The notes beneath the pieces were generated by a model. It did no database searches. It was not told the DNA's origin and saw nothing but the letters and a program-made list of their open reading frames with translations. The position numbers and the translations under genes were made by a program. A stretch of DNA of 64,000 nt from Gemmatimonadota bacterium (lineage in GTDB: Bacteria; JBHIER01; G020348925), in assembly GCA_020348925.1 (NCBI GenBank), contig CP070758.1:3363688-3427687 (forward strand). The letters run 5' to 3'. The first letter of the stretch is position 1, and every line of letters starts with the position of its first letter. Shown here one piece after another: positions 17,258 through 24,051 of this stretch.

Positions 17258-17303
17258 TTGCCCATTCACCTTCGTCCCATTATATTTCGCACTTGCGAAA
17301 TAT
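17258..17303 (+). promoter_or_regulatory. sigma70 promoter with overlapping perfect inverted repeat (putative MarR operator)
   Basis: TTGCCC-17 nt-TATATT; ATATTTCGCA-CT-TGCGAAATAT at 17282-17303. Confidence 0.7.
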
Positions 17304-17391
17304 TCGCATAAACGAATTATTGTGGTTGAAAAGATTGTTTCTACAAATCAATATCTTTCTTCAACACCGTTCTTGAGGGGAGGAGTACGTC

Positions 17392-19563
17392 ATGCATTTT
17401 CATAACGCCCGCGGAGTGTTCACAGTGAAGCACAGATTCTTTCCAAGATATGTGTCATTCATCGTTGCTCTTTTCGTATTCACGACGGCCACCTTTGCCC
17501 AGGACTTCGGGACCGTCAGGGGCAGGATCCATGACGCTCATACCGGAGATCCGCTGCCTAACGCCAATGTGGTTCTGGGCGGTACAAAACAGGGAGCCGT
17601 GTCGGGCGCACAGGGCCTGTTCACCATCAATCGGGTGCCTCCAGGAGAATACCGGCTCCAGGCGACCTACGTCGGCTATGAAGCGGACGTAAGGACGATC
17701 ACCGTCACCTCGGATGAGGATGTTTTCGTTCACTTCGACCTGCGGGAGGATTTCTTCCAAATCCAGGAAATTGTCGTCACGGCAACCCGGACCGACAAGC
17801 TGATGGAGGACGTTCCGGTCGTCACCGAGATCGTCACCCGGGCGGAAATCGAGGAGAAGGGGGCCGAGGACCTGTCCGAAGTTCTCGAGGATCGCCCGGG
17901 AATTGCTATCGAATCTGGCACCACCGGCAACCGGTTTCTCTATATGAATGGAGTCGACAGCCGGAGAATTCTGGTGCTGGTCGATAACGTTCCCCTCTCA
18001 GGTAAACTGAACAACCGCGTTCAACTCAATGTGATCGATGCCGACAAAATAGATCATGTGGAAATCGTCAAGGGCCCCGGCTCGGCCTTGTACGGAAGCG
18101 ATGCCATGGGCGGCGTGATCAATATCATTACCAAAGACTATGGCCAACACCTGATAATCGAGACGAACGGCAGGGCCGGCAGCAACGACCTGTACAGCGG
18201 CAACCTCTCCGTTTCCGGTGGGAAAAAAGATCTCAACTACCTTCTCAATATCGACCATTTCAGGGAGGGCTTCGACCAGGGTGCCTCGGAGATCGAAATA
18301 GAAAAGACCCTCTCCAGCAGTGTGAACGGGAAGGCCAGGTACACGCATCCTGATATCGGCAACCTGGAAGTTCGGGGCGAATACAGGCAGGATGAACAGA
18401 CGTCGGAATCGGCCTTTATGGGAGGCATCAGCGACAATAGAGTCAACATCGAAAACGTCAATTCGAGCTTCGTCTGGAATAGGGCTGTTTCGGGCCGACT
18501 GCAGCTTCAACTGACCGGCTACTATGCCGACAATTTTCGAACATACGAATCCCTCCAACAGGGCTCTGCCTCCCTTGACACCACCACAGACGAGCTCTAT
18601 GGGTTCAAATCGGACTTCGCAGCCATCCCGCTTGAGAAGGTCAAGGTCGATTTCGGATTCGACTTGTCCAGCAACGACTATGAGAATGAACGCTTGCCAG
18701 GCGTGCAAAGCCGGCAGCAAACCGGTGCCTTCACCCAGGTCGAGACCGACATGATCCGCAACCTCACCCTAACATTTGGCGGCAGATATGATAAGATCAC
18801 CGATATCGAGGGATACTTCAGCCCCCGAATGAGCGCCATGTATACTTTTTCCTCGGGATTGAAACTGAGAGGTTCTTACGGCGCCGGTTTCCGCGCACCA
18901 TCATTCATAGAGTTATACAGCGATTTCCCCATTCCCATTCCTGGAATGCCCCTGAGAGTGGTCGGAAACCCCGATCTCAAACCCGAAAAGTCCCTCGGCG
19001 GCAACCTGGGGTTTGAGTATAGGTGGAACTCCCTGCTCCTCGTCAACGCCACTGCTTTTCACAACAAATTCAAGGACATGATCGTGGATTACGAATCCGG
19101 GCCCATGACCTACAGTTATCTGAATGTGGAAAGTGCCACATTCAAGGGTACGGAATTACAGGCCCGTCTCTACCTGCTGCCCAACTTCACCACGACGCTG
19201 TCCTACAATTTCACCGACATCGCCCAGAAAGAGGAGGACGTCGCTTTCTCAAAGATCTCGCCGCACACCGCCTCGCTGAGGATCGTCTATGGTCTGCTGA
19301 AAAATCGCCTGAAATTCTCCTTGCGGAATCAATGGTTCAGCGAGCGGGACATTTTGGCGGTCTCCGGGCATTCCGGAAATCTCTCCAGAGTGAAAAAAGA
19401 TGCTCACAATGAGATCGATATGACCTTATCTTATACGGCGAATGAATACCTGAGGCTGAGACTTGGAGCAACGAACCTCACCGATCACACGGACAAGGAT
19501 TACGGCCCGTACGTGGGCAGAAGATTTTTCTTCGGTTTTCAAACCACATTTCAAAAAGATTGA
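17392..19563 (+). CDS. TonB-dependent receptor (CirA/FepA/HmuR-like) with N-terminal carboxypeptidase-like domain
   Basis: EIVVTATRT, VEIVKGPGSALYGSDAMGGVINIIT, GFRAPSF.ELY, GNPDLKPE, GATNLTD..GRRFFFG. Confidence 0.92.
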   Translation: MHFHNARGVFTVKHRFFPRYVSFIVALFVFTTATFAQDFGTVRGRIHDAHTGDPLPNANVVLGGTKQGAVSGAQGLFTINRVPPGEYRLQATYVGYEADVRTITVTSDEDVFVHFDLREDFFQIQEIVVTATRTDKLMEDVPVVTEIVTRAEIEEKGAEDLSEVLEDRPGIAIESGTTGNRFLYMNGVDSRRILVLVDNVPLSGKLNNRVQLNVIDADKIDHVEIVKGPGSALYGSDAMGGVINIITKDYGQHLIIETNGRAGSNDLYSGNLSVSGGKKDLNYLLNIDHFREGFDQGASEIEIEKTLSSSVNGKARYTHPDIGNLEVRGEYRQDEQTSESAFMGGISDNRVNIENVNSSFVWNRAVSGRLQLQLTGYYADNFRTYESLQQGSASLDTTTDELYGFKSDFAAIPLEKVKVDFGFDLSSNDYENERLPGVQSRQQTGAFTQVETDMIRNLTLTFGGRYDKITDIEGYFSPRMSAMYTFSSGLKLRGSYGAGFRAPSFIELYSDFPIPIPGMPLRVVGNPDLKPEKSLGGNLGFEYRWNSLLLVNATAFHNKFKDMIVDYESGPMTYSYLNVESATFKGTELQARLYLLPNFTTTLSYNFTDIAQKEEDVAFSKISPHTASLRIVYGLLKNRLKFSLRNQWFSERDILAVSGHSGNLSRVKKDAHNEIDMTLSYTANEYLRLRLGATNLTDHTDKDYGPYVGRRFFFGFQTTFQKD

Positions 19564-19572
19564 GAGACCGAA

Positions 19573-20019
19573 ATGAAAGAGGCCAAAAAATTGGCGGAAC
19601 TGACGCCAAAAATTATGAATGCCTTTCACGATCTCGGGCGCCACCACCCTTCAGGCGCAAAGCTCTCGATGCGGCAATATCAGACGTTGATCATCCTCAA
19701 GGCGAGTGGCTCCTTAACCCTTTCCCAACTCTGTAAGAAACTGAACCTGGCCCCATCAACCGGAACCGAACTGGTGAACAGAATGATTACGGCCGGCTAC
19801 ATCCAGAAAGAACACGAGCAACCGGATCAGAGACAGGTGCTCCTATCCGTTTCTCCCAAGGGACTGGAACTCATGGAGAAGAGAAAGGAGGAAACAACGG
19901 ACATGTTCTCGAAGTTTTTATCGAAGCTTTCGTCGGACGAGGATCGAAAAAATTTTGTTTCCTGTTTCGAGCAAATTTGGAATCTTCTCCGGAGTCACCA
20001 ACCGAAAAATTCGGAATAG
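19573..20019 (+). CDS. MarR family transcriptional regulator (HsmR-like)
   Basis: LSMRQYQTL…LSQLCKKLNLAPSTGTELVNRM…GYI…DQRQV.LS.SPKG. Confidence 0.92.
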   Translation: MKEAKKLAELTPKIMNAFHDLGRHHPSGAKLSMRQYQTLIILKASGSLTLSQLCKKLNLAPSTGTELVNRMITAGYIQKEHEQPDQRQVLLSVSPKGLELMEKRKEETTDMFSKFLSKLSSDEDRKNFVSCFEQIWNLLRSHQPKNSE

Positions 20020-20141
20020 CTTATCGGGGCACTCAACACTATCTATACGGGGAATTATTCCCGGACCATGATCATTCGCCACAGAGGCGCGGCTCTCCCC
20101 CTTGAACTTTTATAAATCCTGTGTAACAGGGAAGTGAAGAT

Positions 20142-20522
20142 ATGAATCCAACACTGGTGACTGGGACACGCATCGTCGTTGTCGCCCTGATTTTCTACTC
20201 CATCGGCATTCTGACTGAACAGCGAAAACATCGGATCACTATTCTGGTATTGACTGCTCTGACCATCGGCATCATCACGGATATCACCGCGACGGCTTTT
20301 ATGATTGTCGGTTCGCCGAATTCTCCCTTCACCCTCCACGGTTTTTTGGGTTATTCCGCACTGGCCGCCATGCTGATCGATACAATCTCGATGTGGCGCT
20401 TCCGCTTGAAGAGGGGCGGGAACACTTCCGTCACAAAACACCTCCACCTCTATTCGAGGTACGCCTATATCTGGTGGGTCGTTGCCTTTGTATCAGGCGG
20501 TCTGCTTGTTTTCTTGAAATAA
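20142..20522 (+). CDS. HsmA/TIGR03987-like four-TM membrane protein (putative heme binding)
   Basis: ALIFYSIG, DITATAFM, LHGFLG..AL..ML, HLYS..AYIWW…SG match the HsmA family pattern as I recall it. Confidence 0.7.
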   Translation: MNPTLVTGTRIVVVALIFYSIGILTEQRKHRITILVLTALTIGIITDITATAFMIVGSPNSPFTLHGFLGYSALAAMLIDTISMWRFRLKRGGNTSVTKHLHLYSRYAYIWWVVAFVSGGLLVFLK

Positions 20523-20711
20523 CCCATTTCAAGAAGGAGGAAACCGATCTGCCCCCGGATTCCTGACCAAAATCCTCCATGAATGACAGTCCCACATTTC
20601 TTTATCTTTTCAACTTTAAAAACTTTTTGACGCTCCGACTTTTTTTTTAACTTTTTCACAAAATACGTGTCTATATCATTGAACGGTTCACATGTGACCA
20701 GGAGGGCGGAT

Positions 20712-21263
20712 TTGCCAGACGATCATGAGCTCATGATGGCGGTACGGGACGGCGACCTGGACAGGTTGGGTCCTTTGTTCGAGAAACACAACAGGCATCT
20801 GTACAACTTTTTCTTCAGACAGACTAGGGATCCGCACACGAGCGAGGATCTCGTTCAGGATGTCTTCCATAAAATATTGAGATACCGCCACACATACAGA
20901 GGGGAGAGCAAATTCACCACGTGGATGTTCTCGATCGCCCACAATTCGAAAATCGATTATTATCGGAAGAACAAACATCAGGGCGACCAAATAGAGTTGT
21001 CCGAATCACTGGTGAGTAGTGACCCCACACCGGAGGACACATCCCTTCAAAAGGACGAGAAGGCTCTCCTGATGAAGGCGCTGCGGATGCTATCGGAGGA
21101 AAAGCGAGAGGTGTTATTGTTGAGCCGGTTCCAGAACATGAAGTACGAAGAAATTGCGAAAATCCTGGGCTGCAAGGTGGGCACGATTAAGGCCCGCGTC
21201 CACTGGGCCCTCAAAGATTTAACGAATGCATACCATAAACTTGCGGGGAGTGATGCATCATGA
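20712..21263 (+). CDS. ECF sigma-70 family RNA polymerase sigma factor
   Basis: D.ELM..V..GD, EDLVQDVF, KFTTWMFSIAHN, YEEIAKILG..VGTIKARVH; AGGAGG RBS before TTG 20712. Confidence 0.93.
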   Translation: MPDDHELMMAVRDGDLDRLGPLFEKHNRHLYNFFFRQTRDPHTSEDLVQDVFHKILRYRHTYRGESKFTTWMFSIAHNSKIDYYRKNKHQGDQIELSESLVSSDPTPEDTSLQKDEKALLMKALRMLSEEKREVLLLSRFQNMKYEEIAKILGCKVGTIKARVHWALKDLTNAYHKLAGSDAS

Positions 21264-22066
21264 CGTGTGAGAACATTCAAGAGCGGATCATCGATTATGT
21301 ATTGGGTGCGGTGGAGGCTGCCGAAAAGAGGACTGTCAAGGACCATCTGGCCGAATGCGAAACCTGTCGGCTTCAGCTCGAGCGGATGGAAATCGTGTGG
21401 AGGGGATTGAACCGCCTGCCCGAGAGCGAGCCGTCACCGGCCCTGCGAAGCCGTTTTTACGCCATGCTGGAGAGTGAAAAACACAGGGAACCGCACAAGA
21501 TCCCCTTGTCCGGGCGTATCGAGGGTTTCATCGCATCTCTCTGGCCGAAACGACCCGCACTCCAACTGGCGTATGCGCTGGTCCTTTTGATCGTGGGTCT
21601 GTTCATCGGCGGTCGGGTCCAGGTGTGGGAACATGGTAACGGTGAGATGGCTGCCCTCCGCCAGGAAATCTCAGAGATGCGGCAGATGGTCTCCGTGTCG
21701 CTGATGAATCAGACTTCCTCGGGGGAGCGCTTGCGGGGCATTCAGTACACAGAGCAGATCAAACATCCTACAGGGCCATTGTTGCAAGTCCTTCTCGGCA
21801 CATTGAACTCCGATCCCAATGTCAACGTCCGTCTGGCCGCGGTGGACGCCCTCTTCGCCTTCAGTGACCGACCCGGGATTCGGGAGGCACTTATTGCATC
21901 GCTGTCACAACAGACCTCACCACTGGTTCAGATATCCCTTATCGATCTCCTCGTGGAGATTCGAGAACGGCGGTCGCTGGAAGCACTGAGAGACCTCATT
22001 GGGAATCAGCAGGTCGATCCGACCGTCAAGGAGTATGCCGAGAAACGGATCAACGAGCTTATTTGA
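21260..22066 (+). CDS. anti-sigma factor (zf-HC2 zinc finger, TM, HEAT repeats)
   Basis: C…HLAECETC; one TM; D.NVNVRLAAVDAL HEAT motif; ATGA overlap with the sigma gene. Confidence 0.88.
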   Translation: MTCENIQERIIDYVLGAVEAAEKRTVKDHLAECETCRLQLERMEIVWRGLNRLPESEPSPALRSRFYAMLESEKHREPHKIPLSGRIEGFIASLWPKRPALQLAYALVLLIVGLFIGGRVQVWEHGNGEMAALRQEISEMRQMVSVSLMNQTSSGERLRGIQYTEQIKHPTGPLLQVLLGTLNSDPNVNVRLAAVDALFAFSDRPGIREALIASLSQQTSPLVQISLIDLLVEIRERRSLEALRDLIGNQQVDPTVKEYAEKRINELI

Positions 22067-22079
22067 CGGGAGGTGTACG

Positions 22080-22937
22080 ATGATTAAAACACTGTTTGCT
22101 GTCGCTGCGATCTTCGTTCTCTTCATCCTCGGGATCATCCATGCCGACGTGGAAAAGACCGAAGTGATCGAGAAAACGTATCAGTTCAAGGATACCCAGG
22201 CCGAGAACCTCCTCATCGTCGACAACGTCTGGGGTGACATTCGTGTGACCGGTTACAACGGAGATAATATTCGTGTCAAGGCGGCGAGATCCATTTCGGC
22301 TCGCACCGAGAGAATCTTGGCAGAAATCGAAGAGGAGGTCTACCTGGACATCACAGAAAAAGACGATATGATCGAACTGTATGTGGATGGACCCTTCCGG
22401 GATTACGACGGCAGCTCCCGGCGCAGGGGCAAGCGGCGTCACATCCATTACGAAGCTCGTTATGATTTCGAGATTGAGGTACCCCGGGGGACGTGGGTGG
22501 AACTGAGTACGGTGAACGATGGGGAGATCCTCGTTCGGGATATCGATGGGGATTACGATGTCCACAACGTCAACGGCGGCATAGAAATGGAGAGAATCGG
22601 TGGGTCCGGAGAGGTGTATGCGGTCAACGGGGATGTGACCGTCGACTTCGTGAAGAACCCGTCGAAGAACAGCCGGTTCGGTTCCCTCAACGGGGACGTT
22701 CGCCTCCACTTCCTGCCGAAGTTATCCGCTGACTTCTATTTGAAAACCTTTAACGGTGAGATCTACTCCGATTTCCCTGTATCGTATCTGCCCATACAAT
22801 CGGAGACGAGCTCGTCGAAAAATGGAAGCAGGTATGTCTACAAGGTCAATCGTGAAACAGCGGTCAGGGCAGGTGATGGCGGGCCGGAAATCGAGCTGGA
22901 CGGATTCAACGGGGATATGTTTATCCTGAAAAAGTAG
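22080..22937 (+). CDS. DUF4097 family beta-strand repeat protein (exported)
   Basis: Signal peptide; repeated T/S-VNGGI/GDV units. Confidence 0.85.
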   Translation: MIKTLFAVAAIFVLFILGIIHADVEKTEVIEKTYQFKDTQAENLLIVDNVWGDIRVTGYNGDNIRVKAARSISARTERILAEIEEEVYLDITEKDDMIELYVDGPFRDYDGSSRRRGKRRHIHYEARYDFEIEVPRGTWVELSTVNDGEILVRDIDGDYDVHNVNGGIEMERIGGSGEVYAVNGDVTVDFVKNPSKNSRFGSLNGDVRLHFLPKLSADFYLKTFNGEIYSDFPVSYLPIQSETSSSKNGSRYVYKVNRETAVRAGDGGPEIELDGFNGDMFILKK

Positions 22938-23214
22938 TAGCTATATATCGCAACTGATGCTACTGATTTTGAATGAAAATTGTAAATTCAAAAATGAAAA
23001 ACTTTTCACCCGTGTTTCCCCTTATCACTGGGGAATTCATGCACGTTCCCCCTTATCAAAGGGGGCTGGAGGGCGTTATCATCATTGAAGATTTTCATTC
23101 GCGGTCTACCAAATCTAAAACCGCCTTGAATGAAAATAGTTCACAACCTTTTTGGAAACGACTTGTCCATAGTGATGAGATGAAAAAAAGAAAGAGCAAA
23201 AAAAGGAGGTTATT

Positions 23215-24051
23215 ATGATTCGAAAAGCATCCCTCGTCATCGTTCTGTCCCTCTTCACCGGATTGGGGTGGGTGTATACTCAAGAAGAGGCGCTCGATCG
23301 CATTAATGTCAAATTGACGGATCCTTCGAAGCCCGTGTATGTGGAATTGAGTCTGGTGAACGGAGGCATCACGGTGACGGGCTACGAAGGAGTGGAGGTG
23401 ATTGTCGAGGCGAAGACCAGGACCCGCAAACTTTCGGAGGGAAAAGACCGGGGCAAGAAGACGAAAGGCATGTTCCGCATTCCTGTGTATTCGACCTCTC
23501 TTGAGGTGGAAGAACACAACAACAGAATAGAGATCTCGACAGCTTCCTATAAAAGGACCATCGATGTGGAGTTGAAGGTCCCGGTGAACACGTCGCTCAA
23601 TCTACATTGCGTCAATCATGGAGATATTTACGTGGAGAACGTGACGGGCGACCTCGACGTAAACAATACGAACGGAAAAGTCACGCTGCGAAGCATATCC
23701 GGTTCCGTGGTCGCCCATGCCTTGAATAAAGACGTGGTCGTCACCTTTGAGGCGGTGGATTCAGAGAATCCCATGTCTTTCAGCAGCTTGAACGGTGACA
23801 TCGATGTCACGTTTCCCAAGAACCTGAAATGCAACGTCAAGATCAAGAACGATATGGGCGATGTTTACAGTGATTTTGAAATCACGCGCAGCGAGAGGCC
23901 TGCCGAAACATTCGAGGAGAATGACCGGGGGCACGACGGGAAGTACCGGGTTCGGGTTGAGCGGACGTTCTACGGTACCATCAACGGGGGCGGACCGGAG
24001 TATTCGTTTAAAAACTTTAACGGCGATATCATGATCCGCAGGGTCAAATAG
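23215..24051 (+). CDS. DUF4097 family beta-strand repeat protein (exported), paralog
   Basis: Signal peptide; LVNGGI, NTNGKV, SLNGDI, NFNGDI. Confidence 0.85.
   Translation: MIRKASLVIVLSLFTGLGWVYTQEEALDRINVKLTDPSKPVYVELSLVNGGITVTGYEGVEVIVEAKTRTRKLSEGKDRGKKTKGMFRIPVYSTSLEVEEHNNRIEISTASYKRTIDVELKVPVNTSLNLHCVNHGDIYVENVTGDLDVNNTNGKVTLRSISGSVVAHALNKDVVVTFEAVDSENPMSFSSLNGDIDVTFPKNLKCNVKIKNDMGDVYSDFEITRSERPAETFEENDRGHDGKYRVRVERTFYGTINGGGPEYSFKNFNGDIMIRRVK

Follow-up and report, generated by a model that had tools for sequence, protein, structure and literature searches.

A TonB-dependent receptor-MarR-HsmA-like operon with a double palindromic operator: a candidate module for regulated heme salvage in a Gemmatimonadota bacterium

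We analysed a 64,000-nt stretch of DNA of a Gemmatimonadota bacterium (GenBank assembly GCA_020348925.1, contig CP070758.1, positions 3,363,688 to 3,427,687), referred to below as the window, whose own positions serve as the coordinates of the locus described here; the genome is a single contig of 5.04 Mb and is 96.3% complete. The locus contains three open reading frames in a row on the + strand, which encode a TonB-dependent receptor (TBDR) of 723 aa (17392-19563), a MarR-family regulator of 148 aa (19573-20019) and an HsmA-like inner-membrane protein of 126 aa with four predicted transmembrane helices (20142-20522). With moderate confidence, we interpret this operon as a system for the regulated salvage of exogenous heme, or of a closely related tetrapyrrole, in an apparent auxotroph. 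The three genes, their operator and the MarR protein, the presumed repressor of both operator sites, very probably constitute one autoregulated repressor unit. Three co-oriented genes behind a promoter with two operator sites had been described in the original prediction; all of these elements were found, and the predicted coordinates were right to within 1-2 nt.

Upstream of the receptor gene, a promoter scan identified a sigma-70-type promoter-like site (17258-17286, + strand), in which the -35 hexamer TTGCCC (17258-17263) is separated by a 17-nt spacer from the -10 hexamer TATATT (17281-17286). The pattern TTGCCC-17-TATATT does not by itself exceed chance expectation (5 such sites in a 4-kb scan versus 3.6 in shuffled sequences). 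Operator site 1 (17282-17303), recognised by a repeat search and by its conservation across loci, overlaps both the -10 box and the presumed start of transcription. It is a perfect palindrome, ATATTTCGCA-CT-TGCGAAATAT, with a TTCG-N6-CGAA core (17286-17299) and 10-nt arms (17282-17291 and 17294-17303) that are 100% complementary and lie 2 nt apart. Operator site 2, TTCGCATAAACGAA (17303-17316), starts 17 nt after the start of site 1. The site 1 palindrome occurs once in the window, even when 3 mismatches are allowed, and appeared in none of 100 shuffled sequences, while its 16-nt core is the sole perfect copy in the 5.04-Mb genome. The double site is likewise single-copy in the genome (3 other places at 2 mismatches, versus 2 for a reversed control pattern). 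Since it is found nowhere else, the regulon probably consists of this operon alone.

Related loci, designated here by L numbers, were gathered in two ways: by means of the 126-aa protein (80 loci, from genomes) and by means of the MarR protein (29 loci, from metagenomes); some of them are near-identical (L013/L094; L105/106/107/112; L108/109). All 13 TBDR-first operons with sufficient upstream DNA available (the window included) have the TTCG-N6-CGAA motif no more than 200 nt before the receptor gene. Nine of these 13 promoters carry two sites, and in six of them (the window, L005, L013, L085, L088 and L094) the 17-nt spacing is identical; in L012, L007 and L097 the two sites are wider apart, one of them being placed upstream of the -35 box. 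In MarR-first loci, the motif was found 35-93 nt upstream of the MarR gene in 9 of 15 cases, and some of the six loci lacking it have less than 200 nt of upstream DNA. The density of sites was 30 in 6.6 kb of promoter windows versus 2 in the remaining 168 kb of these loci, and the 76 HsmA-like loci without this MarR contained 20 motif sites in 762 kb. Moreover, the motif accompanies the MarR gene also where the receptor is absent (e.g. L089, L104-L110). Tracking of a regulator gene through differing gene orders is the signature of an autoregulated repressor, and the position of the operator on -10/+1 implies repression by occlusion. We regard these comparisons as strong evidence for a putative autoregulated repressor operator, which this MarR would bind.

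Control by MarR rather than by Fur had been predicted for the operon, and this part of the prediction found support: no Fur-type control was evident, and the operator tracks the MarR gene. A global regulator for iron, heme or redox might instead bind the palindromes, given the structure of the promoter itself. The sequence TTGnnn-17-TATATttcg is constant in 22 aligned promoter regions (approx. 17 distinct), with the first half-site fused to the -10 box, so the conservation may in part be that of the promoter. We nevertheless consider another regulator very unlikely, because the motif follows MarR into receptor-free loci and the double site, unlike that of a global regulon, is absent elsewhere in the genome. 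In addition, a palindrome of 20-22 bp suits a MarR dimer, and the operator of HsmR, the MarR-family regulator of HsmA in Clostridioides difficile, is also described as a 22-mer pseudo-palindrome (PMC12541388).

The second line of evidence concerns the tetrapyrrole supply of the host. No match to ALAD (HemB, PF00490), porphobilinogen deaminase (HemC, PF01379) or ferrochelatase (PF00762) was obtained in the whole genome; the same three families were matched in 8-11 of 14 reference genomes used as controls. The host also contains a CcsA-type cytochrome c assembly gene (C1:842854-843459 in genome coordinates, 157.9 bits), and seven of its frames have 4-11 CxxCH motifs each; among the controls, B. 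thetaiotaomicron shows this pattern too. The host is probably a tetrapyrrole auxotroph and, because biosynthesis genes are missing and c-type cytochromes are present, it would have to import heme.

We also considered the HsmA-like clade as a marker of ALAD-negative genomes. ALAD was detected in 14 of the 56 genomes carrying members of this clade (PGK in 46 of 50 of them). This idea was dropped, as the depletion is explained by taxonomy: ALAD is present in 160 of 200 sampled Bacteroidota, but in only 31 of 150 Bacteroidales (119 lack it). In one carrier of the clade (genome G246, which holds L059), the ALAD gene lies in three pieces (C19:274297-275240) with TAG and TAA codons inside, and looks like a decaying heme-synthesis gene.

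The receptor consists of a signal peptide, a CarboxypepD_reg domain (PF13715), a plug (PF07715) and a barrel (PF00593), and is without a close paralogue in the genome (next best 28% identity). Among 35 NCBIfam families, its best match was TonB-hemin (TIGR01785, 197.9 bits, cut-off 316.85). Its gene context in other loci points in the same direction. Orthologous receptors (39-45% identity) in L007, L012 and L103 are followed by an HmuY-family gene (PF14064) and then by MarR, and the same two genes follow a partial receptor (30% identity over the last 66 residues) in L113. A less closely related receptor occurs together with HmuY-like genes near the HsmA-like gene in 8 Bacteroidota loci: in L041, L060, L061, L077 and L081 the receptor is flanked on both sides by HmuY, with the HsmA-like gene directly after, and in L042 and L049 the HsmA-like gene is placed downstream of HmuY-TBDR at a longer gap (the arrangement in L045 was not resolved). 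In L093 and L100, the next gene codes for an ABM protein of 106 aa, which gave its best matches to the heme-degrading HmuQ and IsdG-type oxygenases (HmuQ 61.5 and 53.2 bits, below the cut-off of 130). The sole cobalamin riboswitch in the genome (RF00174, 114 bits, minus strand), located outside the window at C1:612891-616235 (L124), is followed by a 180-aa open reading frame without a family match and by a 751-aa TBDR, whose best family is TonB-B12 (149.2 bits); cobalamin uptake therefore appears to be served by another receptor. Taken together, gene context makes heme the best supported substrate of the receptor, at somewhat better than even chances.

The 126-aa protein matched TIGR03987 ("HsmA family protein") with 45.8 bits (E 5.5e-12), positions 2-117 of the 120-position model being aligned with residues 6-121, and it shares with this family a length of approx. 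120-130 aa, a multi-pass topology and homology over the full length; no match was found in Pfam. A search of a collection clustered at 90% gave 559 relatives, nearly all of 125-127 aa, which come, where the source is named, from KSB1, Zixibacteria, Marinilabiliales and similar groups. The closest source-named proteins are labelled candidate division KSB1, and the GTDB phylum of the host has one other species genome in the collection. All 25 clade members examined matched TIGR03987 at E <= 0.001 (best E 9.2e-15), and all that were scored remained below the cut-off; in five other genomes with an HsmA-like gene the match ranged from 37.7 to 54.1 bits. A profile search of 1.84 billion representatives retrieved 369 proteins at E <= 0.001. 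Among 24 of these scanned with TIGR03987, two exceeded the cut-off (P0267, 80.8 bits; P0270, 91.0 bits), 18 matched below it and four gave no match. The clade is rare, having been found in none of 200 other sampled Bacteroidota genomes. The homology to HsmA that had been predicted is borne out by the full-length match (though below the cut-off), and we are highly confident that the protein belongs to the HsmA superfamily, in which it is part of a separate clade of Bacteroidota and allied phyla, sister to TIGR03987.

In the alignment joining both clades, H66, M54, M77, G43, W112 and G119 (as well as M1 and L74) are invariant and D47 is nearly so. Two histidine ligands had been proposed in the original prediction. 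One of them, H66, is invariant even in true TIGR03987 members, whereas H102 is kept only within the clade of the window protein; the candidate heme ligands are H66, M54 and M77. The AF2 model comprises four helices (3-29, 34-57, 65-91 and 99-125; pLDDT 90.7). By the positive-inside rule, the basic loops 26-33 and 86-101 are predicted to face the cytoplasm, which would put H66 and M54 close to the periplasmic side of the membrane and H102 close to its cytoplasmic side. No fold could be assigned with Foldseek against the PDB (best E 0.026, cytochrome oxidase subunit III); a wider structure search returned tied four-helix bundles (among them cytochrome b561, Dcytb and CcmF) with Z 11.7-12.7, a range common for helical bundles, and the clade profile gave no match to PDB sequences at E <= 10. 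A "repeat protein" label given by one source was not confirmed, BLASTP of the N-terminal against the C-terminal half having produced no alignments.

A number of observations weigh against this interpretation of the operon as a heme salvage system. Every heme-family score is below its curated cut-off. The TonB-hemin score of the receptor is sub-threshold, with TonB-B12 only 19 bits behind (178.6 bits, full length), and by sequence CirA, the colicin I receptor, is its closest solved relative, the match to heme receptors being confined to the plug. Heme receptors have FRAP and NPNL boxes with a histidine between them, plus a histidine in the plug. The histidine positions of HemR, ShuA and HasR are named in PMC12094164. 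The translation of our receptor contains FRAP and NPDL with no histidine between them, and no histidine pair of the heme-receptor type was invariant across 22 related receptors. Neither HmuY nor an HmuQ-like gene was found in the operon or elsewhere in the genome. The 45.8 bits of the 126-aa protein are below the curated TIGR03987 cut-off of 78.2, and hence below the NCBI family definition. Finally, since ALAD is rare in Bacteroidales generally, its absence from 12 of 12 genomes with receptor-linked HsmA-like genes adds little. The predicted heme uptake module has thus been retained in part: the best family of the receptor and the HmuY/HmuQ-like neighbours of its orthologues agree with it, while sub-threshold scores and the closeness of TonB-B12 do not.

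Many of these points would equally fit the import of a non-heme compound (a corrinoid, another porphyrin, a siderophore or a metal complex), with MarR sensing that compound or stress and the small protein being a general redox or membrane protein. The narrow difference between TonB-hemin and TonB-B12, the relationship to CirA and the fact that no heme-receptor histidine pair was recognised are all compatible with such a role; furthermore, MarR ligands are very diverse and a tetrapyrrole auxotroph needs corrinoids too. On the other hand, the only cobalamin riboswitch sits with a separate, B12-scoring receptor, HmuY and HmuQ/IsdG-like genes are neighbours in orthologous loci, and the only known relatives of the third gene are heme-binding HsmA proteins. 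Import of a non-heme compound thus seems to us possible, and clearly the less probable of the two; heme remains the favoured substrate.

Gene order bears on the interpretation in both directions. The arrangement TBDR-MarR-HsmA-like gene, on one strand, recurs in at least 11 loci (the window, L005, L007, L012, L013, L085, L086, L087, L092, L093 and L094) and is found down to 55% MarR identity. In the window, the receptor and MarR genes are separated by 9 nt, and the MarR and HsmA-like genes by 122 nt. A receptor within 6 kb was found in 15 of the 80 HsmA-like loci, 65 having no receptor nearby, and this MarR was present in 4 of the 80. Conversely, an HsmA-like gene follows MarR in 6 of the 29 MarR metagenome loci and is clearly absent from several complete ones (L100, L090, L091, L103). 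The conserved core of the operon is TBDR-MarR, to which the HsmA-like gene is added as an accessory in part of the loci. Synteny of all three genes exists as a recurrent order, but is limited to those loci.

The 126-aa gene could accordingly be a mere neighbour, transcribed from a separate promoter within the 122-nt gap and functionally unrelated to receptor and MarR. Apart from the many receptor-free loci with their varied contexts (SpoU/YceI/LexA, MBL/ROK) and the MarR loci devoid of the gene, the gap between MarR and the HsmA-like gene, which ranges from 10 to approx. 250 nt, is in agreement with such independence. We consider it quite unlikely, in view of the recurrence of both order and strand and of the position of the HsmA-like gene directly after HmuY-TBDR-HmuY in 5 Bacteroidota loci. 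In addition, no terminator-like site was found in the 122-nt gap of the window, and the fold of this DNA is not unusual (z +1.27).

The receptor-free contexts are of some interest in their own right. An arrangement of SpoU methylase, HsmA-like gene and YceI recurs in Zixibacteria and Ignavibacteriales (L014, L018, L023, L025, L026, L033 and L066, and also L032), and L018, L025, L032 and L033 also have LexA and GYD-domain genes close by; MBL/ROK is another such context. Pairs of YceI and cytochrome b561 are known in E. coli, and the SpoU/YceI contexts provide hints of a possible redox role for the HsmA-like family. In L061 and L081, the HsmA-like gene and CcsA/ResB cytochrome c biogenesis genes are convergent; the same holds for the HsmA-like gene and a cytochrome c554/b561/multiheme cluster in L031, L060 and L067. 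In L098, a MarR orthologue directly follows CcmF. The 116-aa protein encoded next to MarR in L098 and L099 was rejected as an HsmA-like candidate, being a single-pass coiled-coil protein. In the MarR-first loci L105-L110, the DNA some 500-5000 nt past MarR contains almost no open reading frame of at least 100 aa over more than 4 kb, despite its conservation from locus to locus, and might represent an rRNA operon or non-coding DNA of another kind.

The regulator itself carries a MarR domain (PF01047) at residues 31-89, with a score of 44.2 bits, above the gathering cut-off of 24.6. When it was compared with MarR structures, 58 were matched at E <= 0.01. The structure of HsmR (8za5_A) ranked 6th among them (31.2 bits, the top match being 4xrf with 37.1 bits), and PefR was not among the 58, which adds to the points against our interpretation. 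By sequence the protein is an ordinary MarR, no closer to HsmR than to other MarRs. With HsmR in 6th place, orthology to it is unsupported, and the suggestion that an hsmRA-like pair had been joined to an importer is not borne out. The heme ligand of HsmR is His50, located in helix 2. In the MarR subfamily described here, H25 is kept in 27 of 29 members and C54 in 29 of 29, while H19, although present in 30 of 30, forms part of the peptide pattern with which the loci were retrieved, making its count circular; H19, H25 and C54 are candidate ligand-binding residues and nothing more. In the one other species genome of the same GTDB phylum that was compared, no MarR orthologue was found. Heme sensing by this MarR is pure inference; in a cytoplasmic heme sensor in charge of an importer, the ligand could act either as an inducer or as a co-repressor, an ambiguity that counts against our proposal. 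HsmR structures have been deposited as PDB 8ZA5, 8ZDE and 9VG2 (PMC12541388).

On the basis of these data, the operation of the proposed heme salvage system may be envisaged as follows. A dimer of the operon-encoded MarR would bind the two adjacent TTCG-N6-CGAA palindromes over the -10 box and the transcription start, blocking RNA polymerase and regulating its own synthesis, until a ligand, most likely heme, alters its affinity for DNA. Once expressed, the TBDR would carry heme across the outer membrane. The 126-aa protein in the inner membrane may then bind heme near the periplasmic face through His66, with Met54 and Met77, and either hold it safely, as HsmA does, or pass it on. Heme as the substrate, heme as the ligand of MarR and the heme-related role of the small protein are all inferred. 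Conservatively read, the small protein would sequester or handle heme on the periplasmic side; the bold reading would make it a permease.

In its boldest form, the 126-aa protein would be the missing inner-membrane step of heme salvage in auxotrophic Bacteroidota and allied phyla, i.e. a minimal four-helix acceptor or permease, an idea which we put forward as speculative and unlikely as matters stand. Heme delivered by the receptor would be taken up by the periplasm-facing His66/Met54 and handed over to cytochrome c maturation and to the cytoplasm, where it would be sensed by MarR through H19/H25/C54. The HRG-1-type heme permeases of animals are small four-helix membrane proteins that move heme by means of conserved histidines. 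If correct, this idea would provide a bacterial counterpart of them, replacing the classical ABC importer.

As regards the surroundings of the operon, its upstream neighbour, on the opposite strand, encodes a GGDEF response regulator and looks unrelated. The last gene ends with a weak terminator-like hairpin (20494-20518, + strand), recognised as a consensus match only, in which 6 pairs are followed by the T-rich tail TTTTCTTGAA. Downstream there is a separate unit (20667-24051), which likewise looks unrelated and encodes an ECF sigma factor (20667-21263), then an anti-sigma factor (21260-22066) containing zf-HC2 and HEAT repeats, and finally two beta-rich proteins (21999-22937 and 23215-24051), one of them with DUF4097; its adjacency to the operon is not kept in the other loci compared. 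A search of the window for Rfam families gave no matches. Among the sequencing runs listed for this organism, all were sediment-metagenome DNA and none was RNA.

The findings may be of wider significance. Both the crossing of the inner membrane by heme and the regulation of heme uptake are poorly understood in heme-auxotrophic Bacteroidota and their relatives, and a review on P. gingivalis refers to them as hypothetical (PMC12094164). The locus described here offers a new MarR subfamily with a sharply defined putative operator that would control a heme-type receptor, together with a diderm HsmA clade linked to uptake genes rather than to detoxification, whose invariant His/Met set supplies targets for mutation. 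The locus further points to a reliance on external heme in an uncultured sediment lineage, a point relevant to its cultivation.

Of the known systems, the HsmRA pair of Clostridioides difficile is the obvious point of reference. HsmA is reported to bind and sequester heme (PMC10368836, PMC12541388, PMC8212768), in a mode stated to be unknown in PMC8212768, and HsmR, once it has bound heme, is said to activate hsmRA (PMC10368836). As in HsmRA, a MarR gene is placed directly upstream of a gene for a multi-helix membrane protein of approx. 125-130 aa from the same superfamily, the operator is of a palindrome type of approx. 22 bp, and one histidine (H66 in our protein) is invariant across both clades. 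There are also differences. Our host is a diderm whose operon begins with an outer-membrane receptor gene; its small protein scores under the family cut-off and belongs to a separate clade; and the MarR is not an HsmR orthologue. The operator differs in sequence and sits on -10/+1, a repressor position, whereas HsmR, in the account of PMC10368836, is an activator, and the likely purpose is salvage, not detoxification.

The Hmu systems of Porphyromonas and Bacteroides, which consist of the hemophore-like protein HmuY, the receptor HmuR and HmuSTUV, resemble our locus in the receptor, which has the CarboxypepD_reg N-terminus of the Bacteroidota type and HmuY genes beside its orthologues and relatives, and in hosts without heme synthesis, as characterised in PMC12094164 and PMC10434189. 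By contrast, the window lacks HmuY and HmuSTUV, the hmu operon as described does not include an HsmA-like protein, and a MarR with its own operator takes the place of CdhR and SigCH, the regulators given for hmu in these two sources. PefR of Streptococcus agalactiae is a precedent for a heme-released MarR repressor, presented in PMC12541388 as an established mechanism, but it controls efflux, not uptake, and does not appear among the structure matches of our MarR. HRG-1, in turn, is a functional precedent for a small heme handler with four transmembrane helices; it is eukaryotic, and the likeness is one of function, no sequence relation being claimed.

To our reading, no description of the arrangement TBDR-MarR-HsmA-like gene was found in the open-access literature searched. 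In text searches, confusion may arise from the use of the name HsmA also in work on the Slam-dependent hemophores of Acinetobacter, apparently for a different protein. The known parts of the system are thus the HsmRA pair, the Hmu receptors and heme-responsive MarRs such as PefR; what appears to be new, compared with all of them, is a receptor-first operon, a distinct MarR subfamily with a putative double operator on the -10 box, and a diderm HsmA clade, combined in an apparent heme auxotroph.

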